Shown here piece by piece: positions 5,333-43,794 of a stretch of 52,328 nucleotides of DNA. Each line of letters begins with the position of its first letter. The first letter of the stretch is position 1. The stretch is taken from the NCBI GenBank assembly GCA_947626235.1, contig CANQRI010000001.1:1-52328 (forward strand). Direction: 5' to 3'. A model generated the notes under the pieces. That model saw only the letters and a program-made list of their open reading frames with translations, did not search any database and had not been told where the DNA came from. This DNA comes from an uncultured Clostridia bacterium. Its GTDB lineage: Bacteria > Bacillota > Clostridia > TANB77 > CAG-508. A program made the position numbers and the translations under genes.

Positions 5333-5361
5333 TTGTTTTAACCTCTCTATATTAAACAAGA

Positions 5362-5411
5362 CAGTTTTAAATTCAATACATCTAATAATTTAGATGTTAA
5401 ATTAAAAACTG
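5362..5411 (-). promoter_or_regulatory. Intra-operon extended hairpin
   Basis: CAGTTTTAAATT...ACATCTAA-TAAT-TTAGATGT...AATTAAAAACTG forms an imperfect palindrome between the fifth MEN gene and the 585-aa gene. The minus-strand RNA would be followed by UCUUGUUU. Confidence 0.3.
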
Positions 5412-5438
5412 CCCCCTTTTCAAATATTATTATAGTAT

Positions 5439-5963: not shown

Positions 5964-6015
5964 AATAATCAACCTCCTATTTCTTAAAAATTTCTCAAAT
6001 TACTTTATCTTCAGA

Positions 6016-6822: not shown

Positions 6823-6850
6823 ATTCTTTTCTTCCTATTCTAGGTTTGGT

Positions 6851-7324: not shown

Positions 7325-7377
7325 AATAATTTCCTCCCTTGTTTTTTATATATTAATTAAAATTTAAAAATTAATAA

Positions 7378-7818: not shown

Positions 7819-7889
7819 AACCTCCTATATTTTATTATATCACTTTTATTAGTATAATTCAACTTTTTTAGCTTTTATTATCTATTTTT

Positions 7890-8471: not shown

Positions 8472-8488
8472 TTTTATTTCCTTTCCTT

Positions 8489-9247
8489 TTAGTTTGTAGT
8501 TGCTTCCTTGAAACTCATTTCGCTTACTCTTCCATTTAAATCATATTCTACATTTGTACAAGAAAAATATTTTGCCCTAAATGATGTAAGTGCGGAATTA
8601 AGTGCTGTATAAAGTTTTATATCTTTTTCTACTGCCTCTACTCCTCCAGATAATCCATCAACTTTCATTGCTTTATTGTATTGATCAATCAAATCTTTTG
8701 TATCCCTATGTAAATTCATATTTGCATTTATTTGATTTTGGTATTGAATTTGCAAATCTATTAATGTATCTATTGGTTTTCCCCTTGCATTATATGTTGT
8801 TTCAATATTTGATATTTTATTTTTTATACTATTTAAAGCATTAGTTAATTTATCTACACTATTTGGTGCTTTTACAGTATATGTGCCTTTTTTTATATCA
8901 TAATTTCTGCCATCACTTTCATCGTACCCTAAACTAGTTAATGTTATTTCATCTTCTATTGTAATATGTAGCTCAATTGGATCATACTGTTTGTCTTCAT
9001 TTGCCTCCATTATATTATAGTCTTCTGCTCTATTTATAATAGATACAATATCACTTCCATATAAAACTCTCTTGTCAAATTGTTCAAACCTTTTATTATA
9101 TTCTAATATATCTGCAAGCTCTTGTTCTCTTTGTTCTTCAGCTTTAGACTCATTCATTCTATTAAATGCCAACACTACCAAACCTATTACTAATAAGCTT
9201 ATTAGAATTTCACCTGCTATCAAAAGTGCTTTTGATGCATTTTCCAT
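8489..9247 (-). CDS. MEN-family pilin-like protein 1
   Basis: MENASKALLIAGEILISLLVIGLVVLAF N-terminus and a GAGGAA SD. The first 23 nt are nearly identical to those of the genes starting at 8471 and 7324. Confidence 0.6.
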   Translation of the reverse strand: MENASKALLIAGEILISLLVIGLVVLAFNRMNESKAEEQREQELADILEYNKRFEQFDKRVLYGSDIVSIINRAEDYNIMEANEDKQYDPIELHITIEDEITLTSLGYDESDGRNYDIKKGTYTVKAPNSVDKLTNALNSIKNKISNIETTYNARGKPIDTLIDLQIQYQNQINANMNLHRDTKDLIDQYNKAMKVDGLSGGVEAVEKDIKLYTALNSALTSFRAKYFSCTNVEYDLNGRVSEMSFKEATTN

Positions 9248-9291
9248 TTTTCCTCATTCCTTTCATCTAGTCTAAAGCATGTATATTTATA

Positions 9292-11370: not shown

Positions 11371-11389
11371 GTTTTATTTCACCTCTATC

Positions 11390-13355
11390 CTATGCTTGAT
11401 TTAATGGTTTTCTTCCTCTTCTTTTTGGTTGCATATCGCTATCTTCTTTTTCTTCATCTTCATATCTTGCTACTTTCATTCCCCAATTTCTTTCTATGAA
11501 TTTAATAAAATCTTCTGCATCTGCATCATCCATATTGTTTAGCATTTCTCTAATGTTGTGGTCAGTTATTCTATTGGTTAATACATACTCTCCATCATGA
11601 TACTCTAATATGTTTTGATATCTATATAATTCTCTATTAGTTGTTTTTGTAAAATAATATGTAGCATTGTCTATAAATTTATCTAATTTTCCTTCTATTG
11701 TTTTTTCTTTTCTATGATCAAATGTATATTCATTTTTTTGCTCTACTGGTATACATTCAGTTACTCTTTCTATGTATCTTCTTCCTCTAAAGTCTTTTAT
11801 TAAGTGTATATCAAAATTCAATACTTGTACAACTTGCTCTTCAGCTGTTCTTTCATCTTTGAAAACTCCTGCTCTTAACATTGAGTTACGAAGTGCTGTT
11901 ACTAAGTCTGGAAAAGTTTTAGCGTGGTGAGTAAATAATGTAAATTTAGATGCAACTTGTGCAGATTGAATCATCCAAGATGCAACGGGGTCTGTTGCAA
12001 CCTCACCTATGATATTAACAGAACCATCGGTTTTCTTTTGAACGTCCAAACAGTCTTGTCCAGATACTGTTTCAGTTTCACGCATTGATAATATATTTCT
12101 TGTTGGATATATTTTTCTTAAGTGTAACTCAAATGCAGTTTCTGTAATACGAAGGTTCATTGTTTCGTATATATTTTCTATCATCGCCATAAGCATTGTT
12201 GTTTTTCCGACATCCTTGCTCTCCTGTAAGTGATATAATTCTTGCACCTTTTACTAAATATTTTAATAATTCAATTGCTTCTTCCTTTCCAGGGAATCTA
12301 ATAATTTGCTCTAATGTTGCACGCTTTACGTCGAATTTTCTTACAAAGAACGCCCATGTTTCAGACATACTTGGTCTTACAACAACAACACGAGAACCAT
12401 CTTTCATTTCATTAATTTTATAACCATTAGTATCTGATAATTGACCTGGGTTATTATATTTATAAATATTTTGACATACTCTTTTTAATTCTGCTTCTGA
12501 TCCAAAAGATAAAAACTCTAAACGTATAGATTTACCTTGGAACATTATCCAAATACTGTCGCAGGCACGTGGAACTTTATGATCTAGCATTTGGTCTATA
12601 TAATCTCCATCTGTTTGCGCAACTTGGCTTAAAAAGCTTTCTGGTAATCCAGATACACCACCTGAAATACCATCTATATTCATATCTCTTATTTCATCTA
12701 TTGTACTATATCCTTTATAATGTTGATATATTCTTTGTACTACTACATTTAATTTATCTTGGAAAGTTAACATTAAATTTTCTTTTTCATATATCTCATC
12801 TATTTCACTACTTGTTATTACATATGATGGTTTAGCTTCACCTTCAACATATTTTAATCTTGCTAAATCATATTTCTTAATTATTTCAGTTAATGCTTCA
12901 TATCCAAACTCTTGCTTGTACATATATAATATAATTTCAAATTTATCTTGAGCTGTTAAAAGTGATGGTATATCAAATGGAATTGCTTTAGAAACATTTA
13001 ATTCTGTAACTCCATATTCTTTTGACAATAAATCATATATTAATTCTTTTATATATTTTTTATCATTAACATCTCCATAAGTACAACCTTTTAACGCCTT
13101 TTTTAATTCATATTTCTTATTTTTTCTTCTTTTTAATTCCTCTTCAGATAAACCTATATCATAAAGATTTATTTTTGTTATTTCATCTAATCTCTTTTTT
13201 ATAAAAGCAGTCATAACTTCTAATGTATATGTTTTATCATCTACATTTATTTGTTCTTCAACTTTTGCATCTTGCTTTTTCTTTAAGTTTCTTATAATTA
13301 AAAATCCTGCCAAAACTAAAACTGCTAATATTAATATTATGTTTAAAAACTGCAT
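11390..13355 (-). pseudogene. CpaF/TadA (VirB11-class, T2SSE) secretion ATPase, frameshifted in Walker A (ORF pieces 12129-13355 and 11390-12247)
   Basis: The upstream piece ends ...GARIISLTGEQGCRKNNN*. The downstream frame reads ...SKDVGKTTMLMAMIENI. Removing 1 nt near 12207-14 restores TGEQG(V/C)GKTT, a canonical Walker A. The downstream piece also has DGSVNIIGEV (Walker B region) and FTLFTHHAKT (His box). The total span of 1966 nt equals 3n+1. Confidence 0.8.
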
Positions 13356-13376
13356 TTTTTGGCTCCTTTCTTAAGG

Positions 13377-14216
13377 TTATGCTTTCATTTGTAATTCTTG
13401 TATTTTAAATAATAAATCTTGTGACATTCTTTGTGTTTCTTTTATAAATGTTGCATTTCTATCTGTTTCTTTAGTACTTCTAAATCTTAAAAAGAACTCT
13501 GCAACCTTCGAATCTGATGTTGCTTCAAAAAATAAAGTATTGTATGGTATTACTGATATTTCCTTTTTTAATCTTATATATCTTGTTACATTTTTTGCAT
13601 TGTATTTTGAAAACTTATCATATCTGCCTATATTTAGCATTATATTGTTTTTCTTAAAAAAGTCATTTGTTTGTGTTAAGTTTATATAATCATCTATTAT
13701 TGCTAATTTTTGAGTTATATTTATTACTATTACATCTGCCATTTGTAAAATTTTATTTGCTTGTGCTGGTGGCATTTTTTTTGATATATCAACAAATACT
13801 AAATCATAATCTTTGTTGGCAACTTGTATAATTTGTGGATACAGATTACATATAGATTTGTATTCTTCATAACTTTTCGTATTACTAGAACATAATACAT
13901 CAAATCTATCTTTAAAAACTACTCTTGCATAGTTTGACACTATTGAATTTGAAGTTTTATTACTTGTTACTATTTTTATTAAACCTTCAATTCCTGATTC
14001 AAAACCAACTTGACTATTATTTGTTAGATTTTGGGCTATGCTGTTTTGTCTTGACATACTCCAAAAGCAATTTTCTAAAGTTTTATTATTAAATTCTGTA
14101 CTTATATCCAATATTTTTTTGTTGTGTTCTATTGACATGTAAGTACTTAATGCTACCATTGATAGCGTTTGTCCTGTTTCATTACTTTCTCTACTCCAAA
14201 ATGCTATAATAGACAT
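13377..14216 (-). CDS. ParA/MinD-fold protein with degenerate Walker A (TadZ-like) 2
   Basis: MSIIAFWSRESNETGQTLSMVALS occupies the place of xKGGxGK[ST]. It has a DLVFVDIS Walker-B-like segment. Its ATG lies 1 nt after the upstream stop, which suggests translational coupling. Confidence 0.55.
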   Translation of the reverse strand: MSIIAFWSRESNETGQTLSMVALSTYMSIEHNKKILDISTEFNNKTLENCFWSMSRQNSIAQNLTNNSQVGFESGIEGLIKIVTSNKTSNSIVSNYARVVFKDRFDVLCSSNTKSYEEYKSICNLYPQIIQVANKDYDLVFVDISKKMPPAQANKILQMADVIVINITQKLAIIDDYINLTQTNDFFKKNNIMLNIGRYDKFSKYNAKNVTRYIRLKKEISVIPYNTLFFEATSDSKVAEFFLRFRSTKETDRNATFIKETQRMSQDLLFKIQELQMKA

Positions 14217-14217
14217 T

Positions 14218-14931
14218 CTATACTCCTCTTTCTATTCTTTTCATTATCTTTCTAATTTGTGGGTAACTTTCTTCTCCTGTTAATTGTGTAGCTATATACA
14301 TTAAGCCTTCTTTATACTGATTACTCAAATTTCTAATTCTAATTTTTTCTGCTTTTTGATTTTCATATATAACTGTTTGATCTCCTAATTCAAATGGCAT
14401 GTTGACTGTGCTTTGCTCATCCCACGTTACTTTGCATTCTCTAGTTATATAATTTAAATATTCGTTTTCTTTTTTAGTTGCATTTCTTGAAAATATTATT
14501 TTTGTCATATTTGTAGGTTCCTTAAATGCACTGAAAGTCATTATTCCTCTTTTTATTGAATATAAATCCAATGATGTTACAAAGTAATTTTTATCACATT
14601 TTTCTATTTCAAAGTTCACTGCCATATTAGGTGTATCTACATCTATTAATATATAATCGTAATTAATTGGTGAGCTTAATGGTATTCCTAAATATTGTTT
14701 TATATAATTATAATTTTGAAATCCAATTGCTATATCTATTCCTTCATATTGTGTAACATACATTCTTTCTGGTTTTATAGTTGGAATAGTAAATCTAGAT
14801 TTTTGTGTTATTGATGCATCTATAAATAAAACTGTATTTCCCATTTCTACCAACAATTTTGATATATATAGTATAAAATCTGTTTTTTCACATCCCCCTA
14901 TAAAACCTACTTTTTTCATTATAAATTTCAT
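14218..14931 (-). CDS. ParA/MinD-fold protein with degenerate Walker A (TadZ-like) 1
   Basis: KKVGFIGGCEKTDFILYISKLLVEMGNTVLFIDAS, where GGCEKT replaces GGxGKT, plus a YILIDVD Walker-B-like segment. Confidence 0.55.
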   Translation of the reverse strand: MKFIMKKVGFIGGCEKTDFILYISKLLVEMGNTVLFIDASITQKSRFTIPTIKPERMYVTQYEGIDIAIGFQNYNYIKQYLGIPLSSPINYDYILIDVDTPNMAVNFEIEKCDKNYFVTSLDLYSIKRGIMTFSAFKEPTNMTKIIFSRNATKKENEYLNYITRECKVTWDEQSTVNMPFELGDQTVIYENQKAEKIRIRNLSNQYKEGLMYIATQLTGEESYPQIRKIMKRIERGV

Positions 14932-15016
14932 TCCTTTCTTGCTTGAAGGTACTTTACTTACATGTAAGTATTTTATTCTTTATAAGTTACCTCCTCTTAT
15001 ATTGCAATTTATAATT

Positions 15017-15943
15017 TTACTCTCCTAGTGATTCCAAATAACTTTGTCTTTCATCTGCTGCTCTATCAATTTCTTCTTCTACTCCAGATGCTATGTTGTC
15101 TTGTGCATCATCTGGCTCATAACTATTTATTAATGGATCTAATGTACCTTGTCTTATTGCTATATTTCTATTATACAATGTAAATAATGCATTTTTTGCT
15201 TCTTGTAATATGTTTGGATCTGCAAGCATTAAATTTTGTGTAGAAGCTTTTGGTACAAATGTTGTTGTTGCAGCTGTTTGCATTCCTGGTTCTACATATT
15301 TTGTTACATATAACATTGAACCCTCTAATTGATATGCTTCTATTATTGCATTACTCATTACTAATATTTCAGCCTCTGTCATGTTTAGCCATAAAGTTGT
15401 TTCTGATTCTGTTCCTGAAACTGCTGGAATTTCAACTTTCTTTTTAGATATTACAATATAATCTTCTCCACTTGGTAAACGAAATCTTATATCTATAACA
15501 TCTCCTGTTTGTATTTGCGTCATCAGTCTTAACATATTGTATTCTTGCAATCTCATGTCATCTGTTGTTGCATTTTCACTTTCTGTTATCATATCTTCTG
15601 TTACTATTGTTCCTTTAGTTAAATTTATTTTAGCAATTAAATTTTCTTTAGGATTTCCATCATCATCATAAAACGCATCCATTGTTATTGCATTAGTTGG
15701 TATTGCTGAAGAAGCTATTTTTTGTGTTGTGAATAATTCTTCACTAATACTGTCTCCTGAATTTACATCTTCAGATAGCATATATACCTCTTTTAATGCT
15801 TTTCTTTCTGCCTCTCTTTCTTTATTAATGTTGACTAGTTGATATACTAAAAAGCCTATTATACTTCCTGTAATAAGTAATGTTACTAATACTCCTATTA
15901 TTAAATACATATTTGCTTTTCTTTGCATTGGATTCATTGCCAT
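15017..15943 (-). CDS. CpaB/RcpC-like pilus assembly protein (TM + SAF + RcpC-like)
   Basis: N-terminal TM (YLIIGVLVTLLITGSIIGFLV), a SAF-like segment (IAKINLTKGTIVTEDMI), GDVIDIRFRL, and a strong AAGGAGG SD. It is the first gene of the operon. Confidence 0.6.
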   Translation of the reverse strand: MAMNPMQRKANMYLIIGVLVTLLITGSIIGFLVYQLVNINKEREAERKALKEVYMLSEDVNSGDSISEELFTTQKIASSAIPTNAITMDAFYDDDGNPKENLIAKINLTKGTIVTEDMITESENATTDDMRLQEYNMLRLMTQIQTGDVIDIRFRLPSGEDYIVISKKKVEIPAVSGTESETTLWLNMTEAEILVMSNAIIEAYQLEGSMLYVTKYVEPGMQTAATTTFVPKASTQNLMLADPNILQEAKNALFTLYNRNIAIRQGTLDPLINSYEPDDAQDNIASGVEEEIDRAADERQSYLESLGE

Positions 15944-17454: not shown

Positions 17455-17520
17455 AAACTATCAGGGACGTTGTTAAATAGTTTAGCAAGCTAAACTATTT
17501 AACAACGTCCCTGATAGTTT
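17455..17520. repeat. Family-1 palindrome, minimal copy B (termini only)
   Basis: AAACTATCAGGGACGTTGTTAAATAGTTTAGC-AA-GCTAAACTATTTAACAACGTCCCTGATAGTTT is a near-perfect 32-bp stem. It lies between the truA start and the cdaA stop and overlaps the stop codon by 2 nt. Confidence 0.8.
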
Positions 17521-18424
17521 AATCTTTTTCTTCTTTTATTTTTGATTTAGATTTTCTTATTTTCTTAGCACTTACGCCTTCTATTAATCTATTTGTAACT
17601 ACATTTTTTATCAATATTTTCTTTAAAGCTTCCTCTTTTAAATCTGCTATTAAAGTTCCATCTTTTGCAACAGATATTTTTCCTGTTTCTTCAGACACAA
17701 CTATTGCTATTGCATCTGTTTCTTTTGAAATTCCAATAGCTGCTCTATGCCTTGTTCCTAATTCTTTTGCTATATCGTTTGTATTTGAAAGTGGCAAAAT
17801 ACATGCAGCAGATTGTATTTTATTTTCGCTTATTATAACAGCACCATCATGTAGTGGTGTATTAGGAACGAATATGTTTACTAAAAGTTGAGGTGATACT
17901 TCTGCATTTATTTCTACTCCTGTTTCTGCAATATCTTTAATTTTTATATCTCTTTCTATAACTATTAACCCACCAGTTTTAGTTTTGGCAAGTTCTTGTG
18001 CTGCTATTACTATTTTATATATGTCTTCTTTGGTTTTAGTTATTATATCTTTATCTATTCCAAAAAACCTAGTAAACTTATTAGTGCCTAATTGCTCCAA
18101 ACCTCTTCTTAATTCTGGTTGAAATATTACTATAATTGCAATGACTCCATACGTCATTACAGAAGTAAGTATAAAATTTAAGATATCTAGGCGAAGCCAA
18201 CCACTTAATACTGTGGCAATTATTAATAAAATAATTCCTTTCATTAATTGCCATACTCTAGAATTTTTTACTAACTTAATTAGCATATATACTAAAAATA
18301 TTACTATTGTTATATCTAATATTAATGATATTATTCTTAATGGATTTTGCATTAATTCATTAAAGTATGTTACTATGTTTAATTGCCAAAAGTTTGACAA
18401 TGCTTCTGAAAAACTATCTTTCAT
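17519..18424 (-). CDS. cdaA: Membrane-bound diadenylate cyclase
   Basis: Three N-terminal TM helices and a DAC domain with TPLHDGAVII and GTRHRAAIG. Confidence 0.9.
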   Translation of the reverse strand: MKDSFSEALSNFWQLNIVTYFNELMQNPLRIISLILDITIVIFLVYMLIKLVKNSRVWQLMKGIILLIIATVLSGWLRLDILNFILTSVMTYGVIAIIVIFQPELRRGLEQLGTNKFTRFFGIDKDIITKTKEDIYKIVIAAQELAKTKTGGLIVIERDIKIKDIAETGVEINAEVSPQLLVNIFVPNTPLHDGAVIISENKIQSAACILPLSNTNDIAKELGTRHRAAIGISKETDAIAIVVSEETGKISVAKDGTLIADLKEEALKKILIKNVVTNRLIEGVSAKKIRKSKSKIKEEKD

Positions 18425-20319: not shown

Positions 20320-21519
20320 TTATTCTTTAATTCTAGCTACATAACTTTCAACAGTTAAATCTATTTTATTTTTAAATTCATCGTAATCTAAAATAAATAC
20401 TTTAGGATTACTACTCTTCACATTATAAACTCTATATATATAATATTGTTTCTTTATAGATTCCATAGTTTTTAATTCATTTGCACTTATATAAAAATCA
20501 TTAATATCATTTTCTTCAGTAGATTTTACCTCAATATATTTTTCATGTACATTATTAAATTCGTCAATATCGAATGAAATAATGTCATATCCTGTAGTAT
20601 CATCTTCTTTTGACATCCATTTAATCTTTTGAGCTAAATCTTCTCTTCCTAATTTTGTTAGTCTTTCCATTTCATAATCAATAACTAATTCTTCTCCTAA
20701 CAATCCATTCTTAGTATTTGATTGAACCTTTTTTAAATAATCTATCTTTTGTATAGTTTTCTTTGTTATATTAGTATATTTATTTTTCTTTTTATATTTA
20801 GGAATATCTACCTTTTCAAGAAATACTTCACTTCTTTCGTCAGTACTATCATTTTCTTTTAAGGTTTCTTTTATCATTTTATCAGCTTCTTGAGCTATAG
20901 TATATGATGATTTAATATGCCCTACTACATTATCTACAATATCCATATAAGTGTTTTCAACCATATTTTCACATATCTCATCATATACATCTTTGAAATT
21001 TAATAGATCATCAATAAGTTCTTCTTCTGAATATTTTCGTTTTTCATAATATTTAGAAATAATTGTTCCTGCTTCATAACCTTTAGCTAAACTTTTTGTT
21101 CCTTTTAAATCTATGTAACCTGTGTTAAATTTATTATCATCAATTAAATTTCTAAAGTATTCTGCAACCTTTTTAATGTTATTATATTTTTCTTTTCCAT
21201 ATAATTCCTCAAAGGTAGTAATCCCTTGCCCAAGAACTAAATAAAATCCAGACATATCACTTTTAAATAAATAGCAAATATAAATTCCTTTTGTAGCAGA
21301 TACTGTTATATTTTTATTAAATATACATAGCCATGGTATTTCACTTTTTTGTCCTGCTCCTACAGATGCCTTTATTAAATATTTTTCTTTATCAAAATAC
21401 TTATATAAATATTTTGGCAATTTTTTTACAAATTCTAAATAATAGTTTTTATTTGAATCTACTAACACTGAATTATCTTTTAAATATTCATTTAATAATA
21501 TGTCAAATTTTTCTTTCAT
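20320..21519 (-). CDS. McrB-N-like (DUF3578/MrcB_N) + DUF3883 nuclease-like fusion protein
   Basis: N-terminus: YLIKASVGAGQKSEIPWLCIFNKNITVSATKGIYICYLFKSDMSGFYLVLGQG. C-terminus: GEELVIDYEMERL...GYDIISFD...KYIEVKST...FYISANEL...YYIYRVYN, a PD-(D/E)xK-like DUF3883 pattern as I recall it. Confidence 0.65.
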   Translation of the reverse strand: MKEKFDILLNEYLKDNSVLVDSNKNYYLEFVKKLPKYLYKYFDKEKYLIKASVGAGQKSEIPWLCIFNKNITVSATKGIYICYLFKSDMSGFYLVLGQGITTFEELYGKEKYNNIKKVAEYFRNLIDDNKFNTGYIDLKGTKSLAKGYEAGTIISKYYEKRKYSEEELIDDLLNFKDVYDEICENMVENTYMDIVDNVVGHIKSSYTIAQEADKMIKETLKENDSTDERSEVFLEKVDIPKYKKKNKYTNITKKTIQKIDYLKKVQSNTKNGLLGEELVIDYEMERLTKLGREDLAQKIKWMSKEDDTTGYDIISFDIDEFNNVHEKYIEVKSTEENDINDFYISANELKTMESIKKQYYIYRVYNVKSSNPKVFILDYDEFKNKIDLTVESYVARIKE

Positions 21520-21765
21520 AATTTTAACTCCTTTACAAATTTTTCCAAAGGTATATCTCCTAACATAAATTATAATTCAAAATTTCATTTTTTGAGACAA
21601 ATCTATATTCACAATACTTCACAATTTTTATTCTCTATACTATTTCTTACAATAATAAATCTAGAATGATTATATCAAACTAGACTTTTTTACACAATAT
21701 TTTAATTTATTATCTAAAAAGGAAATTATTTAATAAATTTCTTCTATAATTAGTCTTTTTATTAT

Positions 21766-22740
21766 TTAAGCTTCGTTTTCTTCACTAATAAGTATAACTT
21801 CGTTAAGTTTTCCATCTTTAAATAATTTATTTATGTTATTAATTATTTTTCCTGAAATTTTAATGTTATCCTTATTTATCATTTCTTTTACAACTGAACG
21901 AGCAGCATTCTTTAATATTTTTTCTATACTTTCACTCGACGTATCGTATTTAGAATATTCTTCATCGCTTAAATCTGATAAACTACAATATAATGAATAT
22001 TTTTTATCTGTATCGCTATATGTATAATAATAATATGAAGAAACAATTCCTCCAAAACTGTTAGTTCCACTGACATTCATAACAATTTTTTTATTATCAT
22101 GATCAAACCAAGCACTTGTTAATCCAAAAGACATTGGATTTTTTAATCCTTCAGATATTTCGTTAGATAATACAGCTAAAATATTTTCAGTTAATACATC
22201 ATTCTTTTTGCTACCATCTGCTTTTTCATATGCTTCAAAATATTTTCCCTCTACCAGTAAATCATCTACTGATACATTCAATTTTTCTATACCTTTTATA
22301 GCAAAATTAATTATACATATTAGAACAACAATTGCAATAAGTATTAATATTAATACTTTTAAATTTATCTTTCTAATTTTTGTTCTACAACCTTTTTTCA
22401 AAGAATCTACTATATTGTCAACTTTTATATCATTTTTTTCACCACATTTTGGACAAAATTTTTGGTTTATTTTTAACTCTTCACCACATTTTTTGCATAT
22501 AATTTTTTTATATTCTCCTCTTTTCATTCCGCATTTTGGGCAAAATTCCTGTCCTTCTTCCAATTTAGCACCACAATTTAAACATGCTGTTATTTCATTT
22601 GTATCTTTTTCTCCTTTATTTTTTTCATCAATTTTTACATCATCTTCATTTTGTTCTTCTTCATTTTGTATTTCTTCATCTTGTACTTCTTCCTCTTGTT
22701 CCTTTTCTTCATTTACTAATGTATCCTTTTCTTCTTCCAT
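21766..22740 (-). CDS. Double zinc-ribbon membrane protein
   Basis: An acidic N-terminus is followed by CLNCGAKLEEGQEFCPKCG and CKKCGEELKINQKFCPKCG. One TM helix (VLILILIAIVVLICIINF) and a roughly 180-aa extracytoplasmic domain follow. Confidence 0.6.
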   Translation of the reverse strand: MEEEKDTLVNEEKEQEEEVQDEEIQNEEEQNEDDVKIDEKNKGEKDTNEITACLNCGAKLEEGQEFCPKCGMKRGEYKKIICKKCGEELKINQKFCPKCGEKNDIKVDNIVDSLKKGCRTKIRKINLKVLILILIAIVVLICIINFAIKGIEKLNVSVDDLLVEGKYFEAYEKADGSKKNDVLTENILAVLSNEISEGLKNPMSFGLTSAWFDHDNKKIVMNVSGTNSFGGIVSSYYYYTYSDTDKKYSLYCSLSDLSDEEYSKYDTSSESIEKILKNAARSVVKEMINKDNIKISGKIINNINKLFKDGKLNEVILISEENEA

Positions 22741-22871
22741 ACATCATTTTCCTTTCATTTTCCATTATATCACAATCTAAATAAAATACTTATATAATTT
22801 TCAAAAAAATGTTTATTTCTAAAAAGCTTAACTTAGCTTTCTCTTAAATTCTGATTTTAAAAAAACTTTAC

Positions 22872-23687
22872 TTAATCATTTGAAGTGCTACTATTTTGCT
22901 GAACATTAGCTACTATTTGCAAAACTCTATAAATTAGTTCTAACAATGCAATAATCATATCATTAATATACTGAATATTATATAATTTAAATAGCTCTTT
23001 TATCATCACCAATTCATCATCTGTAGCCATATTGCTGTTTTTTAATACTTCATATGCTTTATTCTGTGCTTTTTTTTCAGTTTTAAGTACTTTTATTGAC
23101 AATATAAATGAAATTATGTATATTAACAATCCTAACACCGTAAACGCTAAAGTAAATACTACAGACTGACTTTGTATAATTAATACATCAATAAGTATAC
23201 CAATAATAACTAATGGAATAAATGCTATTGGTCCAAAATAAATAATCGGCGTTAATCTAACTCTAATTCTCATATCTGGATCATCTTCTTTATCCAATAT
23301 AGCTAAACATGATTTTTGAGAAGCCATTGCTAATGATGTTACCGAACTTTTCTTCCATGTCAACCTTCTTAATCTAATTTTCTTAAAATAATGACTATAA
23401 CTATTACCAAAAAGGAATGAACCACTTGTTTTTACTTTAATATGTTGTAATCCATTATCATCCAAAATTTTTCTTGCAATATCGCATCCTGTCATTTTTA
23501 AACTATTTTCTTTTTTATTATATTTATGATATTTAATTGCCAAAACTATTTGCACTCCTAAAGCAAAAACAGAAACTATTAATATTAAAATTAAAACAAT
23601 CCCCATTAACAATATTATTCCATCTGACACATTATTTAAGCTATATCCTACTACATTTTCTCCTATCATTCTAAATGTTTCTACCAT
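22872..23687 (-). CDS. YugP-like (Zn_peptidase_2) membrane protein lacking HExxH
   Basis: MTGCDIARKILDDNGL...VTSLAMASQKSCLAIL aligns by eye to the YugP family. QKSCL sits where that family has HEVGH. Confidence 0.5.
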   Translation of the reverse strand: MVETFRMIGENVVGYSLNNVSDGIILLMGIVLILILIVSVFALGVQIVLAIKYHKYNKKENSLKMTGCDIARKILDDNGLQHIKVKTSGSFLFGNSYSHYFKKIRLRRLTWKKSSVTSLAMASQKSCLAILDKEDDPDMRIRVRLTPIIYFGPIAFIPLVIIGILIDVLIIQSQSVVFTLAFTVLGLLIYIISFILSIKVLKTEKKAQNKAYEVLKNSNMATDDELVMIKELFKLYNIQYINDMIIALLELIYRVLQIVANVQQNSSTSND

Positions 23688-24520: not shown

Positions 24521-24841
24521 TTATTCTTCATCTATAAAATTAAATTCATCTTTAAATTTTTCCTTGAATATTTCAAATACTTTATTTAAAACATTTTCGT
24601 CATCTACACTTACATATGACTCTTCTTCTTCGTTTTCTGTATCTTCTACTTTTAATATTACTACTTCTCCTGCATCCTCTGATTCTTCTTCTTCAACTGG
24701 TAATAATATTACGTATTCTTCTCCATCTAGTTCTATTAAATCAAGAAATTCAAAAGAAACTTCCTCCCCATTTTCATCATTTAACACTATTATATTGTCC
24801 AACTCCTCATCTGGAACATTTAAATTTTCATCTTCATTCAT
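24521..24841 (-). CDS. DUF1292 family acidic protein
   Basis: IVLNDENGEEVSFEFLDLIELDGEEYVILLP...VVILKVE pattern, in the conserved position after ruvX. Confidence 0.8.
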   Translation of the reverse strand: MNEDENLNVPDEELDNIIVLNDENGEEVSFEFLDLIELDGEEYVILLPVEEEESEDAGEVVILKVEDTENEEEESYVSVDDENVLNKVFEIFKEKFKDEFNFIDEE

Positions 24842-24935
24842 TATTTTATTCTCCTTTCAAATATATATATAAAATTGCATTTCTACAATTTAATATCATT
24901 TTTATTATTATTTACTTTTTTGTATATGATATACT

Positions 24936-25358
24936 TTATTTATTTTTCATTTTATTTACATAAGTTTCTAATATATAAACTGCTGATATTGTGTCTACTA
25001 TATCGCGTTTTTTCCTTTTATTTACATCAAGAAAATTCATAGTTTTATGGGCTGCTACTGTTGTTAACCTTTCATCTATTTCTTCTATTTTTACAGTATT
25101 AAATTTGCATTTAAGTTTATGAATAAATTCTTGCGTTATTTGTGCTCTTTCTGACTTTGTTCCATCCATATTTATTGGCATTCCAACAACTATTGTATCT
25201 ATTTCATACATTTCTAGAATTTCTTCTAGTCTATGTAAAAGTACTTTATCATTATTTTGATGATGTATAGTTTCCAGACCTTGCACAGTTATGCCTAATG
25301 CATCAGTTATAGCAATTCCTACTCTTGCTTCACCATAATCTATACCTAATTTTCTCAT
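24936..25358 (-). CDS. ruvX: Holliday junction resolvase-like / pre-16S rRNA nuclease (YqgF)
   Basis: LGIDYGEARVGIAITD and VVGMPINMDGT motifs; 140 aa. Confidence 0.9.
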   Translation of the reverse strand: MRKLGIDYGEARVGIAITDALGITVQGLETIHHQNNDKVLLHRLEEILEMYEIDTIVVGMPINMDGTKSERAQITQEFIHKLKCKFNTVKIEEIDERLTTVAAHKTMNFLDVNKRKKRDIVDTISAVYILETYVNKMKNK

Positions 25359-25442
25359 CTTTGCCTCTTTTTTATTTTATACTTATTTAATTTTAACTTA
25401 ATAACTTTCAGTTTTATAATTTTATGTTTCTCAATTTTACAA

Positions 25443-25694
25443 TTAATTAATTTCTATATAGTTTTTAACCATTTTTTCTAATAGTTCATCTCTTTCTATT
25501 TGTCTTATTAAATTTCTTGCATCATTATGACTTGTTATATATGTTGGATCTCCTGATAAAATATATCCAACTATTTGATTTATTGGATTATATCCTTTTT
25601 CAGCTAATGCCTCATATACTTTTTTTAATATTTCCTTACTTTTATTGCTATCATCTTTTCCTACTTTAAAGCACATCGTTTCATCTATTGACAT
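25443..25694 (-). CDS. ireB: IreB family regulatory phosphoprotein (UPF0297)
   Basis: 83 aa with [37 protein letters not shown], in the conserved ireB-ruvX-DUF1292 order. Confidence 0.85.
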
Positions 25695-25706: not shown

Positions 25707-26804
25707 TTAAATATAATTTATTGCATTTTCTTCTGTTCTACTATCCAAAAATTCTTCTAATTTTTTAGTTACTCCTTCTATTTGCGTTCCTTTATAATAT
25801 TTAGTAACTACTACATTTATTTTAGGTTTTGCAGTTAAGTTTTCTTCATCATCTTCATATAAATCTCTTTCATCAGCTGGTACTTCCATTGATTCTATTT
25901 TTTGTTTTATATCATTCATAAAGTCTGCTACACCATTTACTTCTACACCAGAAAATGCTATTACAAATTTTGGTCCCATGTATCTTACAAATATATACTC
26001 ATCTGCAATATTATTTTTTATTAAATCACTTATTTGTGTAATTACTGCATTTCCTGTATGCCTACCTATGTTTTCATTTATATCTGCTATGTTTACAATT
26101 TTAAACATGCATATTGCAGATGTTGCATATACATCTATCAATCTTTTTCCCTCTGAATATAAATATTCTGCTGATTTCAAACCTGTAAATTCATCTGTTC
26201 TTACTATATTTTCTACTACGCCTTGTTTTTCTATAGACCTTAACGCAGATATTATATTATTCTTTACAACTTCCAATATTGTAGTATCTACATTATCAAA
26301 ATCATGAGGAATTCCACTTTCTATAATCCAATAACCAATGTATATGTTATCTATATATAAAGGAAAAAACATTGCTGATTTAGCTCTTCCAAATTCTAAT
26401 TTTTGGTATGGTAATCTTTCGCCTTCTCTATCTACTGTTATATACTTTGGCGTAGCTGTTTGTATACTGTCTTTAAATATTTCTTCTTTATGAAGATTTC
26501 TTAATGTATCCCAATGTTTTTGGTCTACATTTGTTGCCTTTATTGTATATTCTGTACCAGTATATACCACTATAGTAGAATATTTTATATCATATTTTTC
26601 TATTAGAATTTCATTTATTCTTTTTATTTTTTCATCTGCTGACTTTTCTTCACCTATTGTATCCATAAACTCTTGTAGCACATTTAAACTTGTTATTCTC
26701 TGGTTCACGTTTTTATATACATCTATTTTTTTATAAACAGACATATTATATACCATCAAAAAGCCAATTATTACTACTAATAGTATTATTACCGCTATTA
26801 TCAA
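25707..26804 (-). CDS. Membrane-anchored sensor-like protein with a degenerate GGDEF domain
   Basis: N-terminal TM and a GAF/PAS-like middle region. The C-terminus reads DEFTGLKSAEYL...FKIVNIADINENIGRHTGNAVI...FVRYMGPKFVIAF, so MGPKF replaces GGDEF. Confidence 0.6.
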   Translation of the reverse strand: MIIAVIILLVVIIGFLMVYNMSVYKKIDVYKNVNQRITSLNVLQEFMDTIGEEKSADEKIKRINEILIEKYDIKYSTIVVYTGTEYTIKATNVDQKHWDTLRNLHKEEIFKDSIQTATPKYITVDREGERLPYQKLEFGRAKSAMFFPLYIDNIYIGYWIIESGIPHDFDNVDTTILEVVKNNIISALRSIEKQGVVENIVRTDEFTGLKSAEYLYSEGKRLIDVYATSAICMFKIVNIADINENIGRHTGNAVITQISDLIKNNIADEYIFVRYMGPKFVIAFSGVEVNGVADFMNDIKQKIESMEVPADERDLYEDDEENLTAKPKINVVVTKYYKGTQIEGVTKKLEEFLDSRTEENAINYI

Positions 26805-26838: not shown

Positions 26839-29800
26839 TTAATAATTATTTTTCATTCTATTTAATGTATTATTCATTTGTGGTGAAAATCCTCCCTTAT
26901 CGTATTGCCCATATTGAGTTTTTTGATTTCTATTTGTTCTTTCATGCCTTGTACCATTTGCTATTAATGGATATACCATGTTAGCTAATTTTCTAAGTTC
27001 CATAAGTATTTCTTTTGAATAACCTTCTGTTGAAATTTCACAATTCACTAATCCTTCTAAATATTTTGAATATGCTTGTGAGTCAAAAGGAATTACAGTA
27101 TATTTTACGGTTTCTCTATTAAATAACTCTGTCATAAAAGACATTGCTGGATCGTTATAAAAGGCCATTCCTCCGATAACTGTTTTTTCTGTTAAACTTC
27201 TTACTCTTACATACTTATTTATTATTATTCTTAATTTATTTTGGTCTAACACACCTTTTGCTTTTAAATCTCTTAAATATGCTGTAAGTGGTTGTATTGT
27301 AAGTACATCCATACTTTGTACTAAATATAACTCTTGCAATCTTGATATATACCTATAGTCTGATTTAAAGTCGCAATCTACTAATATTAGTGAATACGCT
27401 CCTAATAGTGTATTTACTACATTATCTATATTTGTAACTTGATCATCTGCACCAGGTACAGATGTGTATACATCTAAATTTGGATTTACTTTTATTCCTT
27501 CTGTAGCACCTTGTTGTAACCTTTGCATACAATTCATTGCTTTTTTTCTTAATTCTTCTTCATTTTTTGTGTATATATAATATGCATTCTTATTTTGTGT
27601 TAAATCTAATATTGCTACTTTTATTCCTTGTCTTGATAAAATTTGTGCTAAATTATCAACTATAAATGATGTTCCATTTTTTGATGTTCCCACAAATCCA
27701 ACTATTTTTTGATCTCCACTTACTAAATTATTTGTGTTTCCACTACTTATTGGAGTTTGTGTTTCTAAATGTTCTTCCTGTGCATTTACATTATTATAAT
27801 TTTGATTAGAAGTATAATTTGATACCATATTTTCTGAATTATAATTATCAAAACCTGGTAACGTTCCATTATTCTGTTCAGTTTGACTATTTTCTTCATT
27901 GTAATCACCAAATCCTGGTAATGTTCCGTCATTACTTTGTTCAAATGTATTGTTATCTACATTGTAATCATCAAATCCTGGCAATGTTCCATCATTATTT
28001 TGTTCAAATGAATTTTCTTCTTCATTGTAATTATCAAAACCTGGTAATGTTTCATCATTATTTTGTTCAAGTGTATTGTTATCTACATTGTAATCATCGA
28101 ATCCTGGTAATGTTCCATCATTATTTTGTTCAAATGTATTGTTATCTACATTGTAATCATCGAATCCTGGTAATGTTCCGTCATTACTTTGTTCAAATGT
28201 ATTGTTATCTACATTGTAATCATCAAATCCTGGTAATGTTCCGTCATTACTTTGTTCAAATGTATTGTTATCTACATTGTAATCATCAAATCCTGGTAAT
28301 GTTCCATCATTATTTTGCCCAACTGAATTTTCTTTTTCATTGTAATCATCAAATCCTGGCAACATTCCATCATTATTTTGTTCAACTGAATTTTCTTCTT
28401 CATTGTAATCATCAAATCCTGGTAATACACTATCATTCATTTGTGTACTATAATCATCACTAAAACCTGGCAATACACTATTATCTGCATTATTATCTTG
28501 AAATCCTGCTAGAGTATCATCAACTGCACTTACCTTTTCTTGCTCAACTTTTTTAGGTCTTCCTCTTCCTCTTCGTGGTTGTGTATCTTCTGTTTGAACT
28601 GTGCTGTTTTGAGTTACATTCTTTTTAGGTCTGCCTCTTCCTCTTTTAACTTGAGCAGGTTCTGTTTGTTCATTTAACATTGCATTTCCTTGAGGCACAT
28701 TTTCACTTTGTTGTTGACTGTTTGCGTTTAAATCTTGTTGTACTGTCTGTGGATTTTTGACTTGTACTGTATTTTTATTTTCCACTTGAGACATTTGATT
28801 TGCTTGCGTTTTTGCCATTTGTGGCATTGGCCTTGCTTGTGCATTTGCAATTTGTGGTTTTGTTTTTATTGAGTTATTGGCCATCTGTGCCATTTGATTT
28901 AGTTGACCATTTGACATTTGTGGTTTCTGACTAACTTGATTATTTAGCGCTTGTGGCCTTTGATTTGCTTGCGTATTTGCCATCTGTGGCGTTCTATTTA
29001 CTTGTGTGTTTGCCATTTGCGGCGTTCTATCTACTTGCGCATTTACCATTTGTGGCGTTTTATCTACTTGTGGGTTATTACCTAATTGATTATTTGACAT
29101 TTGAGATACCTGCCTTTGCTGGATTTGGTTATTTGAGATATTTTGCTTTGCTGTTACTTTCTTCACATTTTCTGTGGTAACTTCTGTTGGAATTATAACT
29201 GGCTTACTTAAAACTGCATTATTTTTTTCTGTTTTTAATGATTCTATTTTTAACCCTGCTTTTTCAGCTTTCTTATCTGTTTTTTGTTGTTTCTCTTGTT
29301 TTTTACTAAATTTAGATTGTGGATTTCTATATTCATTTTGTTTATTTGCTTCTCCTGAATATGCAACTACTTGTTGATATTTAGGACAGTTAGCTTCTAA
29401 TACGGCTTTTACATTTAATGGTAAAAATTTAGTAATTAACCTTAACTGTGCATCTGTATATTGATTAGCAATACTGTTAAAACTTTCAACATATTTTTCT
29501 TCGTTTTTTCCTAATTTTTTGTAATGTGCTAGTATATTTTGAATTTCTATTTCACTAACATTTCCTTCACTTTCAGCTTTATATTCAACCTCGTTTGAAG
29601 AAATTTTGTAATATACCTTGGCTTCTTTTTTACTTCTTGGTTTGTTAATTAAATTACAAACCTGCTCTATACTTCTATCTTGTCCAATTAATGCACTATA
29701 AACGCCTATTCCAAATAATTTTACTAAAATATTTTCGCCTTTTGTTCTTCTATCTGTGGAAATAAGTATTATTGGTATATCTTCTCCCTGTATATTTGAA

Positions 29801-30051
29801 GCCTCATCACTTATACTGTCTAATTTTTCAAATATGAAATTATCTATAGTATCATAATTTTTACTTGCAAATGGCTCTAAATCTTCACTTACTACTATTC
29901 TATCATATGACTTATCCTTTTGTAATTCTTTTATAATTGCGTTAAAATAGTAAACATTTTTACTAGATATAATTTCTTTATACATCTGTTGATATTTTTT
30001 TACTATTGCCTCCGATATTGACTCATTGCTAACCGCAAATAAAACTTTCAT
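26839..30051 (-). CDS. Giant TadZ/CpaE-like protein: receiver-like N-domain, Q/N-rich repeats, two AT-hooks, LPGF repeats, degenerate ParA/MinD C-domain
   Basis: MKVLFAVSNE...DRIVVSEDL...IPIILIST is CheY-like. KRGRGRPKK and RRGRGRPKK are AT-hooks. There are 12 L(P/A)GF units. The C-terminus IVGFVGTSKNGTSFIVDNLAQILSRQGIKVAILD...LILVDCD is ParA-like and lacks the GK[ST] lysine. Confidence 0.6.
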   Translation of the reverse strand: MKVLFAVSNESISEAIVKKYQQMYKEIISSKNVYYFNAIIKELQKDKSYDRIVVSEDLEPFASKNYDTIDNFIFEKLDSISDEASNIQGEDIPIILISTDRRTKGENILVKLFGIGVYSALIGQDRSIEQVCNLINKPRSKKEAKVYYKISSNEVEYKAESEGNVSEIEIQNILAHYKKLGKNEEKYVESFNSIANQYTDAQLRLITKFLPLNVKAVLEANCPKYQQVVAYSGEANKQNEYRNPQSKFSKKQEKQQKTDKKAEKAGLKIESLKTEKNNAVLSKPVIIPTEVTTENVKKVTAKQNISNNQIQQRQVSQMSNNQLGNNPQVDKTPQMVNAQVDRTPQMANTQVNRTPQMANTQANQRPQALNNQVSQKPQMSNGQLNQMAQMANNSIKTKPQIANAQARPMPQMAKTQANQMSQVENKNTVQVKNPQTVQQDLNANSQQQSENVPQGNAMLNEQTEPAQVKRGRGRPKKNVTQNSTVQTEDTQPRRGRGRPKKVEQEKVSAVDDTLAGFQDNNADNSVLPGFSDDYSTQMNDSVLPGFDDYNEEENSVEQNNDGMLPGFDDYNEKENSVGQNNDGTLPGFDDYNVDNNTFEQSNDGTLPGFDDYNVDNNTFEQSNDGTLPGFDDYNVDNNTFEQNNDGTLPGFDDYNVDNNTLEQNNDETLPGFDNYNEEENSFEQNNDGTLPGFDDYNVDNNTFEQSNDGTLPGFGDYNEENSQTEQNNGTLPGFDNYNSENMVSNYTSNQNYNNVNAQEEHLETQTPISSGNTNNLVSGDQKIVGFVGTSKNGTSFIVDNLAQILSRQGIKVAILDLTQNKNAYYIYTKNEEELRKKAMNCMQRLQQGATEGIKVNPNLDVYTSVPGADDQVTNIDNVVNTLLGAYSLILVDCDFKSDYRYISRLQELYLVQSMDVLTIQPLTAYLRDLKAKGVLDQNKLRIIINKYVRVRSLTEKTVIGGMAFYNDPAMSFMTELFNRETVKYTVIPFDSQAYSKYLEGLVNCEISTEGYSKEILMELRKLANMVYPLIANGTRHERTNRNQKTQYGQYDKGGFSPQMNNTLNRMKNNY
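27841..28512. repeat. In-frame 60-63 bp tandem repeat array (LPGFDDYNVDNNTFEQSNDGT units)
   Basis: About 11-12 units are present. The units starting at 28081, 28144 and 28207 are exactly 63 bp and nearly identical. Confidence 0.85.
28972..29070. repeat. In-frame 33-bp tandem repeat (ANTQV(D/N)RTPQM units)
   Basis: Three consecutive 33-bp units of the form GTATTTGCCATCTGTGGCGTTCTATTTACTTGT. More degenerate copies extend over about 28790-29110. Confidence 0.75.
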
Positions 30052-30055
30052 TTGT

Positions 30056-30481
30056 TTAATCCCCCCAACCTCTTACTACTATTGCAAATATTAAAGGTAA
30101 TACTTGTGCAATAACAAATAGTGTTACGATTGATATCATAACCATAAAACCTTTGTCTCTAACATCCATTTTCCTTATACCTAAAACATATTGATAAATT
30201 GCACTAATTGCAATTCCTACAAAGCAAAAAGGTATACTATATATTTGTATTTTATTTAATAAGTATGCTGTGAACCCGTATGCATCTGAACCATATGCCT
30301 TTTTATAATCTTCTAAAGATTTTTCCTCTTTTTCTTTTAACTGTACTAATTGGCTTATTGAGGTATTTTTATCGTTAACATTGGTATTAGTTTGTTTATT
30401 TGATGTTGTATTTGATGCAAAAGCTACTGTACTTACCAGCATACAAAATATTACTGTTACTAGTGCGACTGCCTTTTTCAT
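30056..30481 (-). CDS. Small secreted/membrane protein (signal peptide + two TM helices)
   Basis: MKKAVALVTVIFCMLVSTVAFA signal-like N-terminus and two C-terminal hydrophobic helices. Its stop lies 4 nt before the 1070-aa gene start. Confidence 0.5.
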   Translation of the reverse strand: MKKAVALVTVIFCMLVSTVAFASNTTSNKQTNTNVNDKNTSISQLVQLKEKEEKSLEDYKKAYGSDAYGFTAYLLNKIQIYSIPFCFVGIAISAIYQYVLGIRKMDVRDKGFMVMISIVTLFVIAQVLPLIFAIVVRGWGD

Positions 30482-30633
30482 GCATTACTACTCCTTTCAG
30501 ATTTTTATACAATTTATACTTATAATATAATACAATAATATCCGAAAAATAGCAAGGAAATATTTAGAATTTTTTTTAATTTTTCTATATTTTTCCAATA
30601 TTTTTTATATTTAAATTCTTTTAACATAAATAA

Positions 30634-30672
30634 TACCCAAATTTTTGAAATAGATTTACAAAAATTTGGGTA
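30634..30672 (-). terminator. Hairpin downstream of sigK
   Basis: TACCCAAATTTTTG...CAAAAATTTGGGTA stem located 6 nt after the stop. The minus-strand RNA continues UUAUUUAUGUU, a weak U-tract. Confidence 0.4.
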
Positions 30673-30678
30673 TATTTT

Positions 30679-42711: not shown

Positions 42712-43794
42712 TTATAATATTAAATTATCAAAAACAAATTGTTCTTGCATTCTTTTTAATGCTTGTTTAATGCTTTTAGCTCTTACTTCACCTATTCCAT
42801 CAACATCATCTAAATCTGGAATGTCAGCAATTAATATATGTTGGAATGATTTAAAGGTTTTTATTAAATTATCTACTATGTTACTTGGCATTCTTGGTAT
42901 TTTATTTAAAATTCTGTATCCTCTTGTAAATACGCCTACTTCATCATAATTGTCAAAATCTTCATATCCTAAAATTCTTCCTATTATTTGAGGCTTCATT
43001 AAGTCTTCTCTTGATAAGGATTCAATTTCTTTTAATACCTTTTCTGAACTTCTTTTCTTACCAGGTGCTATGTAGTCTTTTACTATTAATAATTCTTCCT
43101 TTTCTAGTCCCCCAACTAGTTCATCTAATTGCATTTGAAGAAGTCTACCTTCTTCTCCCAACTCATAAATGGACTTTTGGACTTCGTCCACTACTTTCAT
43201 AACCATTTCTGCTCTTTGTATTGCTGTTACTACATTTTCTAAAGTTGCTATATCATTAAATTCATATTCATTTAATAAACTTAATTTGCTATCAAATACT
43301 TTCTTATATTTTTCAACTGTTTGTAAAGCTTGATTTGCTTTTGTAACAACCTTACTTGTGTCTTCTAAAACATAGCTTGCATACCCCTTAAATACTGTTA
43401 TTATGTTTCTTCTTTGAGAAATACTTATTACTATTTCTCCAGTTTGTTTTGCTGTACGTTCTGCTGTTCTATGCCTCGTTCCTGTTTCTGTTGAAGTTAT
43501 ATCTGATGATGGTATTAGTTGAGCATTTGCATATAGAATTTTTTTAAAGTCTGCACTTAATATTATAGCTCCATCCATTTTTGCTAGTTCGTATAATCTC
43601 GATGGAGTATAATCCACATCTATTTTAAACCCTCCGTCTACTATATCTAACACTTCTTTTGTATCTCCTATAACAATTAACGCACCTGTTTTTGCTTTTA
43701 ATATATTTTCTAAACCGTTTCTTATTGGAGTTCCTGGTGCAATTAATTTTAATACTTCTGTGATAGAATCGTCTTTACCTAGCATCTTTTTCAC
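42712..43794 (-). CDS. disA: DNA integrity scanning protein DisA (diadenylate cyclase)
   Basis: GALIVIGD, MDGAIIL and GTRHRTAERTA in the DAC domain, with a C-terminal HhH (GIGEVRAKSI). It is adjacent to radA, as is typical. Confidence 0.93.
   Translation of the reverse strand: MKKMLGKDDSITEVLKLIAPGTPIRNGLENILKAKTGALIVIGDTKEVLDIVDGGFKIDVDYTPSRLYELAKMDGAIILSADFKKILYANAQLIPSSDITSTETGTRHRTAERTAKQTGEIVISISQRRNIITVFKGYASYVLEDTSKVVTKANQALQTVEKYKKVFDSKLSLLNEYEFNDIATLENVVTAIQRAEMVMKVVDEVQKSIYELGEEGRLLQMQLDELVGGLEKEELLIVKDYIAPGKKRSSEKVLKEIESLSREDLMKPQIIGRILGYEDFDNYDEVGVFTRGYRILNKIPRMPSNIVDNLIKTFKSFQHILIADIPDLDDVDGIGEVRAKSIKQALKRMQEQFVFDNLIL

Follow-up and report, generated by a model that had tools for sequence, protein, structure and literature searches.

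In bacterial cells, spatial organization is chiefly the work of proteins of the ParA/MinD type, which normally rely on an ATP switch to act. Noc, the nucleoid occlusion protein of Bacillus, is ParB-like and CTP-dependent. For TadZ, a Walker A-like consensus of the form K/RGGxGxS/T has been described (bioRxiv 10.64898/2026.07.08.737194). Members of TANB77 are common uncultured bacteria of the human and animal gut for which a link with the response to cancer immunotherapy has been reported, and Kim et al. 2024 (PMC11680825) described a TANB77-specific Tad-like pilus cluster (proteins 927–938). The cell biology of these bacteria, whose genomes are reduced, is almost wholly unexplored. Here we analyze a gene on a 52,328-nucleotide stretch of DNA from an uncultured Clostridia bacterium (GenBank assembly GCA_947626235.1, contig CANQRI010000001.1, positions 1 to 52,328 of the forward strand), the whole of which we call the window. 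The gene occupies 26839–30051 on the minus strand, to which all coordinates given below refer, and encodes a protein of 1070 amino acids (aa) composed of a receiver-like head, a disordered linker and a pseudo-ParA/MinD domain.

From sequence, structural models and analogy, we tentatively favor the possibility that this protein is a MinD-like, catalytically degenerate scaffold that tethers AT-rich DNA to the membrane and positions the nucleoid in growth and division. It is probably a chromosome–membrane link, and probably neither a pilus factor nor a sporulation factor. If this is true, a device for positioning or tethering would have been built along a different route, in which the fold was kept, both Walker lysines were dropped, and eukaryote-style AT-hooks and acidic short-motif arrays were added.

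The degenerate ParA/MinD-fold domain and its C-terminal peptide

The sequence-only reading of this DNA had described a protein of five successive parts, and we located each of the elements it listed within the open reading frame (ORF), in the order given. A single ORF covers both end domains in all 74 related genomes whose locus includes the start of the gene (733–1337 aa, median 793). Since the protein of the window has 1070 residues against this median, we count it, on length, as a repeat-expanded member of the family. A conservation map of the family delineated six conserved blocks, namely aa 1–226, aa 283–289, the two AT-hooks, at least one LPGF motif, aa 778–1030 and the last 16 residues.

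The penultimate block, aa 778–1030 (26962–27720), has the ParA/MinD fold that had been proposed for it. The AlphaFold (AF2) model of this C-terminal domain has a predicted local distance difference test value (pLDDT) of 79 and a predicted template-modelling score of 0.76, and Foldseek matched it with a probability of 1.00 and E-values of 5e-11 to 1e-7 to ParA, FlhG, MinD, BcsQ, Soj and NifH. The best match was a Chlorobium ParA-family ATPase (PDB 3ea0, 5e-11), and Borrelia ParA was also among the matches. The domain does not pass the curated Pfam models CbiA, ParA and MipZ: CbiA gave 23.0 bits, under its cut-off of 25.4, MipZ gave 14–18 bits against 20.7, and the CbiA matches were purely sub-threshold in 34 of 46 family members. 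Searching the PDB by sequence, with each end domain as a single sequence and as a profile, returned nothing useful.

The P-loop of this domain, GTSKNGTS at aa 788–795 (27667–27690), lacks the lysine of GK[ST], just as the sequence-only reading had it. To place it in register, we aligned the C-domain profile with E. coli MinD by hhalign, which yielded a local match of 20 residues that we used solely for the P-loop. In this register, MinD K11 corresponds to T789, K16 to T794, T17 to S795, D38 to D816 and D40 to T818. Both Walker A lysines and the catalytic Asp are thus missing, and the motif departs from the deviant Walker A pattern xKGGxxGK[ST]; D816, the equivalent of MinD D38, and a Walker B-like D892 are retained. 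The replacement motif, G-T-[ST]-K-N-G-T-[ST]-F, is nearly invariant in the family, so that the P-loop is under selection and not in decay.

The last conserved block is a C-terminal peptide of the form F-x3-M-x3-L-x2-M-x3-Y (aa 1055–1070; 26842–26889), which is predicted to form an amphipathic helix. Its hydrophobic moment is 0.40, compared with 0.21 ± 0.11 for shuffled sequences and 0.45 for the tail of E. coli MinD. In distant relatives, the C-termini read KKKGLF, KKFFG or RRGIFG; they occupy the same position after a short spacer and resemble the membrane-targeting sequence of MinD.

AT-hooks, acidic repeats and the N-terminal head

The linker contains two canonical AT-hooks, as had been noted, KRGRGRPKK at aa 469–477 (28621–28647) and RRGRGRPKK at aa 493–501 (28549–28575). 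The Pfam AT_hook model (PF02178) scored 18.0 bits against a cut-off of 17.4, so that an R-G-R-P core, basic flanks and a score above the cut-off are all present. The family consensus is [PV]K[KR]xRGRP[KR]K, and 70 of 75 orthologues have exactly two GRP cores, a median of 23 aa apart.

The hooks are followed by an acidic array of L(P/A)GF units at aa 514–737 (27841–28512). All twelve units that had been counted are there, at aa 514–734 with a period of 21 aa, and in the DNA they form a 63-nucleotide (nt) tandem repeat of 9.4 copies with 87% matches (27838–28426). The net charge of aa 511–745 is −56. At least one copy of the acidic consensus EEEE-T-[IV]-LPGF-[ED][DE] is present in 74 of the 75 orthologues, and the acidic LPG motif occurs 213 times among them, compared with 4.3 occurrences expected from shuffled linkers. 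Given this excess and the constancy of the two GRP cores, we conclude from the sequences that neither the hooks nor the acidic motifs are there by chance. The number of LPGF motifs ranges from 0 to 9 in the 74 genome-derived orthologues, all of which are exceeded by the twelve of the window, and two metagenome representatives have 14 and 15. We speculate that the acidic LPGF motifs could act as mimics of acidic I/L-P-x-F peptides, such as occur in the C-terminal tail of FtsZ or the tail of SSB.

The remainder of the linker is less constant. A motif KPV(I/V)IP(S/T) at aa 283–289 (29185–29205) is conserved inside an otherwise variable sequence. The Q/N/P-rich repeats noted earlier are present, at aa ~328–425 (28776–29070), but they have a period of 11 aa over ~100 aa and not the ~200 aa of decapeptides that had been described. 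Tandem Repeats Finder reported a period of 33, 8.9 copies and 70% matches. The unit has the form xxQxxxxPQMA in approximately nine copies and lies within a Q/N-rich stretch of 165 aa (aa 300–465); these repeats are not conserved among orthologues. Repeat number varies markedly among close relatives, as seen in P0241 (890 aa, 2 LPG motifs), L003 (1078 aa, 7) and L002 (1208 aa, 9), and public gene calls of this AT-hook/MinD-like family are mostly truncated within the repeats. The linker is either hypervariable or often mis-assembled.

For the conserved N-terminal region, a length of ~140 aa had been proposed. The region begins with an alpha/beta part, aa 1–137 (29641–30051), and its conservation reaches to ~aa 228 and not 140. 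Identity between species is 70–93% in the N-domain, and purifying selection on it is very strong. The N-domain profile found 419 matches among 1.84 billion representative proteins, every one of them beginning at residue 1. The AF2 model of the N-domain (pLDDT 64) shows an alternation of strands and helices over aa 1–137, and the Foldseek matches, although weak (E-values of 0.01–0.1), were consistently flavodoxin- or receiver-like. They included the AdiA wing, the REC domain of ComE (2e-2) and the N-domains of CpaE and CpaE2; the CpaE N-domains 4n0p and 4myr gave 0.03–0.1 with this low-confidence query model (pLDDT 64). No Pfam family matched the N-domain even at E = 1, neither TadZ_N nor the receiver family (PF00072), and hhalign comparisons of its profile with CheY and Spo0F gave probabilities below 1%. 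The suggestion of a CheY/receiver-like head thus draws weak support from Foldseek, but none from Pfam, PDB sequence searches or hhalign. A response-regulator receiver would combine a model match with a phospho-acceptor Asp, and the N-domain does not have this combination. Glu56, which is invariant, lies four residues ahead of Pro60 at the position of the receiver phospho-Asp, in a register inferred from the low-confidence model. Residues E56, D70, R102 and R126 do not vary, not even in the most distant members. Taken together, the two terminal domains compare unequally with known folds, the C-domain being ParA/MinD-like and the receiver match of the N-domain being weak.

The head continues into a strongly conserved bundle of five helices at aa 165–229 (29365–29559), modelled by AF2 with a pLDDT of 86–95, to which no known family could be assigned. 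We considered a helix-turn-helix for this segment and dropped it, as its Foldseek matches to RcsB and VpsT came only at 14–17 Å rmsd and with low probability.

Searches for homologues returned 655 proteins with the C-domain and 571 with the N-domain, all of them from metagenomes or metagenome-assembled genomes (MAGs) and all unnamed or annotated as 'hypothetical', as was every family member sampled. Most are fragments broken within the repeats; RGRGRPKK hooks, acidic LPGF, LPGM or LPGL motifs and the P-loop are common to them. In a scan with one genome per species, at least 593 species-level genomes carried the family. All of those listed are uncultured gut Clostridia, including Clostridium sp. 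CAG:273, CAG:508 and Candidatus Merdicola, and the closest among the matches listed came from a rabbit-gut MAG (92% identity). We take the host genomes to be members of the order TANB77 of GTDB. As far as the sequences recovered show, the family is restricted to uncultured gut Clostridia of the TANB77 type and some more distant relatives.

Distant relatives keep the N-domain and the pseudo-ParA domain, with a P-loop of the form GA[NH]KxGTTF, and their linkers consist of long QRQAEIARQ-type repeats, which look coiled-coil-like, or are rich in G, S and Y. Because the head, a long flexible spacer, the MinD-like domain and a terminal peptide are kept in these relatives, we regard them as the core of the family; the AT-hooks and LPGF motifs are an elaboration of the TANB77 branch.

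The conserved operon, sigK and the pilus cluster

The genes are arranged alike in essentially all 80 loci: a gene for a 141-aa protein, the target gene, a gene for a protein with one transmembrane helix and a degenerate GGDEF domain, and then IreB, RuvX and DUF1292 genes. Four distant relatives have the same module, in which the GGDEF gene is optional. The 141-aa protein (30056–30481) has a signal peptide and two C-terminal transmembrane helices, and its gene stops 4 nt before the ATG of the target. It lies directly upstream in ~74 of the 80 loci and also in distant relatives (pairwise E-values of 1e-12 to 1e-21). The Shine–Dalgarno-like GGGGGA of the target sits in the last (GWG) codons of this gene. 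The R-G-W-G-D end of the 141-aa protein (30056–30070), which is K-G-W-G-K in a distant relative, is encoded by the same nucleotides as the purine-rich ribosome-binding site of the target, and part of the conservation of this end peptide may reflect translational coupling. Upstream of the 141-aa gene, a consensus scan found a weak candidate for a sigma-A-like promoter, TTGCTA-17-TATTAT (30527–30555). No terminator-like sites were found on the coding strand inside the operon. The IreB, RuvX and DUF1292 genes (24521–25694; Pfam E-values of 2e-40, 4e-40 and 7e-17) follow in all informative loci, distant relatives included.

The gene directly downstream (25707–26804) encodes an N-terminal transmembrane helix and a GGDEF-type domain in which YMGPKF replaces GG[DE]EF; because of this substitution at the active-site motif, the protein is probably not a cyclase. 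It begins 34 nt 3′ of the target, has an AGGAAGG site and is kept in TANB77 loci and in some distant relatives. The target could instead serve as an envelope or second-messenger signalling scaffold that acts with this degenerate GGDEF protein and IreB in a manner resembling that of BcsQ (MinD-type) and BcsE (degenerate REC-GGDEF) in cellulose secretion. The presence of the GGDEF membrane protein in nearly all TANB77 loci speaks for such a role, as do the IreB gene that always follows, the strong fold match of the C-domain to BcsQ (2e-8) and the invariant E56, D70, R102 and R126, which suggest a pocket for a ligand or a partner. However, the BcsQ match is no better than those to MinD, FlhG and ParA, the GGDEF gene does not adjoin the target in L081 and on the P0364 contig, no c-di-GMP-binding motif was identified, and the AT-hooks would be left unexplained. 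We therefore regard a signalling scaffold as doubtful.

On the other side of the operon, sigK is encoded on the same strand, 630 nt upstream, and this position had led to the suggestion of a sporulation-related positioning role. The sigK gene is indeed upstream, yet the 141-aa membrane-protein gene and a terminator-like hairpin intervene. Under SigK control, the protein would be a sporulation-specific positioning factor, and sporulation genes are present, sigK here and Spo0A in the contig of a relative. Against this, the pairing of sigK with the target is not conserved: of 67 informative loci, just 13 have sigK immediately upstream in the same orientation, 9 have it on the other strand, and 29 have no sigK within at least 5 kb. 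In addition, the hairpin after sigK (30628–30677; −17.8 kcal/mol, z = −5.5, with a U-rich tail) and the sigma-A-like promoter candidate before the 141-aa gene both lie between sigK and the target, and the invariant downstream partners are housekeeping genes. On these grounds we consider a role under SigK very improbable.

The sequence-only reading had also suggested a possible link of the protein to a filament system 11 kb away. The genes at 3575–15943 match the TANB77-specific cluster of Kim et al. 2024 (PMC11680825) gene for gene; its content comprises CpaB, a 231-aa TadZ-like protein, a 280-aa CpaE-like protein, TadA, a TadBC fusion and pilins including the 621-aa 'pilin 938', the counterpart of which in the window has 594 aa. 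Thirteen consecutive ORFs within 3575–15943 gave no Pfam match at E ≤ 1e-3. CAG-492 species are said to be without this cluster. The target lies 10.9 kb upstream of the cluster in the window, and the cluster is also found 9–11 kb downstream in four related genomes, at loci L001, L003, L016 and L021.

If the protein were a TadZ/CpaE-type localization factor, its head would find a site in the cell and its ParA domain would recruit the TadA/TadBC of this pilus. The sequence-only reading was fair in describing the domain order as that of TadZ/CpaE, a receiver-like head followed by an atypical ParA domain. The second Walker lysine is gone, as in K/RGGxGxS/T (bioRxiv 10.64898/2026.07.08.737194), the CpaE and CpaE2 N-domains are among the weak Foldseek matches, the cluster recurs at a similar distance in the four loci just named, and both the family and the cluster are typical of TANB77. 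Membership fails, however, on locus, motif and sequence models. The C-terminal ParA/MinD fold fits TadZ, and so does the G-x-S/T end of the P-loop, but the K/RGG part is missing, neither TadZ_N nor a receiver model of Pfam matches, and the gene lies outside a tad/cpa locus. The cluster has TadZ-like (14218–14931) and CpaE-like (13377–14216) genes of its own, and BLASTP of the target C-domain against these two ParA-like proteins gave no significant similarity. Nine housekeeping genes stand between the target and the cluster, namely those for IreB, RuvX, DUF1292, a membrane protein, YlqF, mini-RNase III, CdaA, TruA and DUF2651; the operon partners of the target are unrelated to pili, and Kim et al. 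2024 (PMC11680825) left the gene out of the conserved cluster. The proximity seems to be a matter of general synteny, not of an operon link. TadZ membership is thus not supported, and a pilus localization factor seems unlikely.

Several other features of the window were observed. The TadA/CpaF-like ATPase of the pilus cluster is split into overlapping ORFs at 12129–13355 and 11390–12247, with the break within Walker A: one frame reads LTGEQG and the other VGKTTML, and removal of one T would give GEQGVGKTTM. This 1-nt frameshift reflects either a pseudogene or an assembly error. The C-terminus of the second TadA-like ORF (11390–11440) ends in ...MQPKRRGRKPLNQA, which is basic and AT-hook-like (with GRKP, not GRP), and is possibly a second DNA-binding tail in the region. 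Just downstream of the cluster, a 440-aa ORF (2169–3491) resembles a SpoIVB-type sporulation peptidase by eye. Three genes at 20320–23687, encoding a MrcB_N + NOV_C protein, a double zinc-ribbon protein and a 271-aa ORF, lie between the conserved gene for a 158-aa membrane protein and ylqF. They have a counterpart in 0 of 86 related loci, and in L001, the closest relative, the genes on either side adjoin each other, so that the block looks like a strain-specific insertion. A defense-system reading was dropped when the PADLOC models gave no match. The window also contains two diadenylate-cyclase (DAC) genes, one of the CdaA type (17519–18424) and one of the DisA type (42712–43794).

The proposed tether and known systems

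The pilus TadZ, signalling scaffold and SigK factor explanations are all less well supported than a MinD-derived scaffold. The sequence-only reading already contained the idea of a tether to AT-rich DNA, and this is still the best lead. We suggest a scaffold because the C-domain has the ParA/MinD fold and both lysines are replaced in a nearly invariant motif; the domain would have lost its ATPase function and could serve as a dimerization or partner-binding module. The DNA end of the tether is suggested by the two hooks in 70 of the 75 orthologues together with host DNA of 25–30% GC. The hooks may bind in the minor groove at almost any place along the chromosome, which has 27% GC, and would thereby substitute for the ATP-dependent non-specific DNA binding of ParA. 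Membrane attachment would be through the C-terminal amphipathic helix, possibly with the co-encoded protein of two transmembrane helices. This proposal draws on the conservation and amphipathic character of the tail, on the basic KKGLF(G) tails of MinD type in distant relatives, and on the tight coupling to the membrane-protein gene (a 4-nt gap, with the Shine–Dalgarno inside that gene). A role in ordinary growth is suggested by the housekeeping context, the sigma-A-like promoter and the lack of a terminator-like site inside the operon. Thus, the protein might hold the nucleoid at the membrane, or fix its position with respect to the membrane, while the cell grows and divides as usual, in the manner of Noc or of a MinD/ParA landmark. 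The acidic LPGF array could work as a platform for multivalent docking or modulate the hooks in the manner of an HMGA acidic tail, and the receiver-like head could be a regulatory or partner-binding end. The very strong purifying selection on the N-domain (70–93% identity) also speaks for the scheme.

Several observations weigh against this proposal. The AT-hooks are absent from distant family members, and DNA binding therefore cannot be the ancestral core function. The P-loop is invariant and contains a conserved Lys791, so that a nucleotide or some other ligand might still be bound there. The C-terminal peptide, N-rich and rather polar, has a hydrophobic moment that 6% of shuffled sequences reach, and it may bind a partner instead of the membrane.

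With less confidence still, we can envisage that a nucleotide-independent descendant of MinD/ParA, its DNA binding taken over by the AT-hooks and its membrane attachment supplied by the C-terminal helix and a dedicated partner of two transmembrane helices, forms a hitherto unknown nucleoid–membrane tether or division-site system peculiar to TANB77 and its relatives, in which the LPGF array would act as a multivalent hub for division or envelope proteins.

Among known proteins, MinD resembles the target in fold (Foldseek 7e-9 to 5e-8, TM-score ~0.7 on the target) and in layout, with a globular domain followed, after a short spacer, by a C-terminal peptide that is amphipathic or basic; KKGLF(G) of the distant members is close to KKGFLKRLFGG of E. 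coli MinD. Unlike MinD, the target lacks equivalents of K11, K16 and the catalytic D40, scores below the Pfam threshold, has an extra N-terminal domain of 230 aa and a disordered linker of 300–800 aa, and has no minC or minE among its neighbors. TadZ/CpaE proteins share with it the atypical ParA/MinD domain and the loss of the second Walker lysine, and perhaps the receiver-like head, for which CpaE N-domains are among the weak fold matches, whereas the target lies outside the tad locus, is devoid of K/RGG and contains a long AT-hook/acidic linker. The likeness to BcsQ–BcsE consists of the MinD-type fold of BcsQ (2e-8) and of the pairing of a MinD-like protein with degenerate receiver and GGDEF domains. 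This locus has no cellulose synthase genes, its receiver-like part is fused to the MinD-like protein and not to the GGDEF protein, and the likeness to the target itself is limited to the fold.

The resemblance to Noc lies in a principle that is wholly inferential on our side, one protein on DNA and, through an amphipathic helix, on the membrane; the folds are unrelated, and the DNA binding proposed for the target is AT-hook-based and non-specific. HMGA and the HMGA-like domain of Myxococcus CarD likewise combine repeated K/R-flanked RGRP cores with a strongly acidic segment. In the target, by contrast, the hooks lie in a linker with a globular bacterial domain on each side, short LPGF motifs make up the acidic part, and there is no transcription-factor domain. 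In the literature searched, we found no case of AT-hooks combined with ParA/MinD in bacteria, and likewise nothing relevant on PDB 3ea0. Set beside these systems, the ParA/MinD fold with a TadZ-like domain order is already known, while the family and its N-terminal domain are undescribed and its HMGA-like linker is unprecedented.

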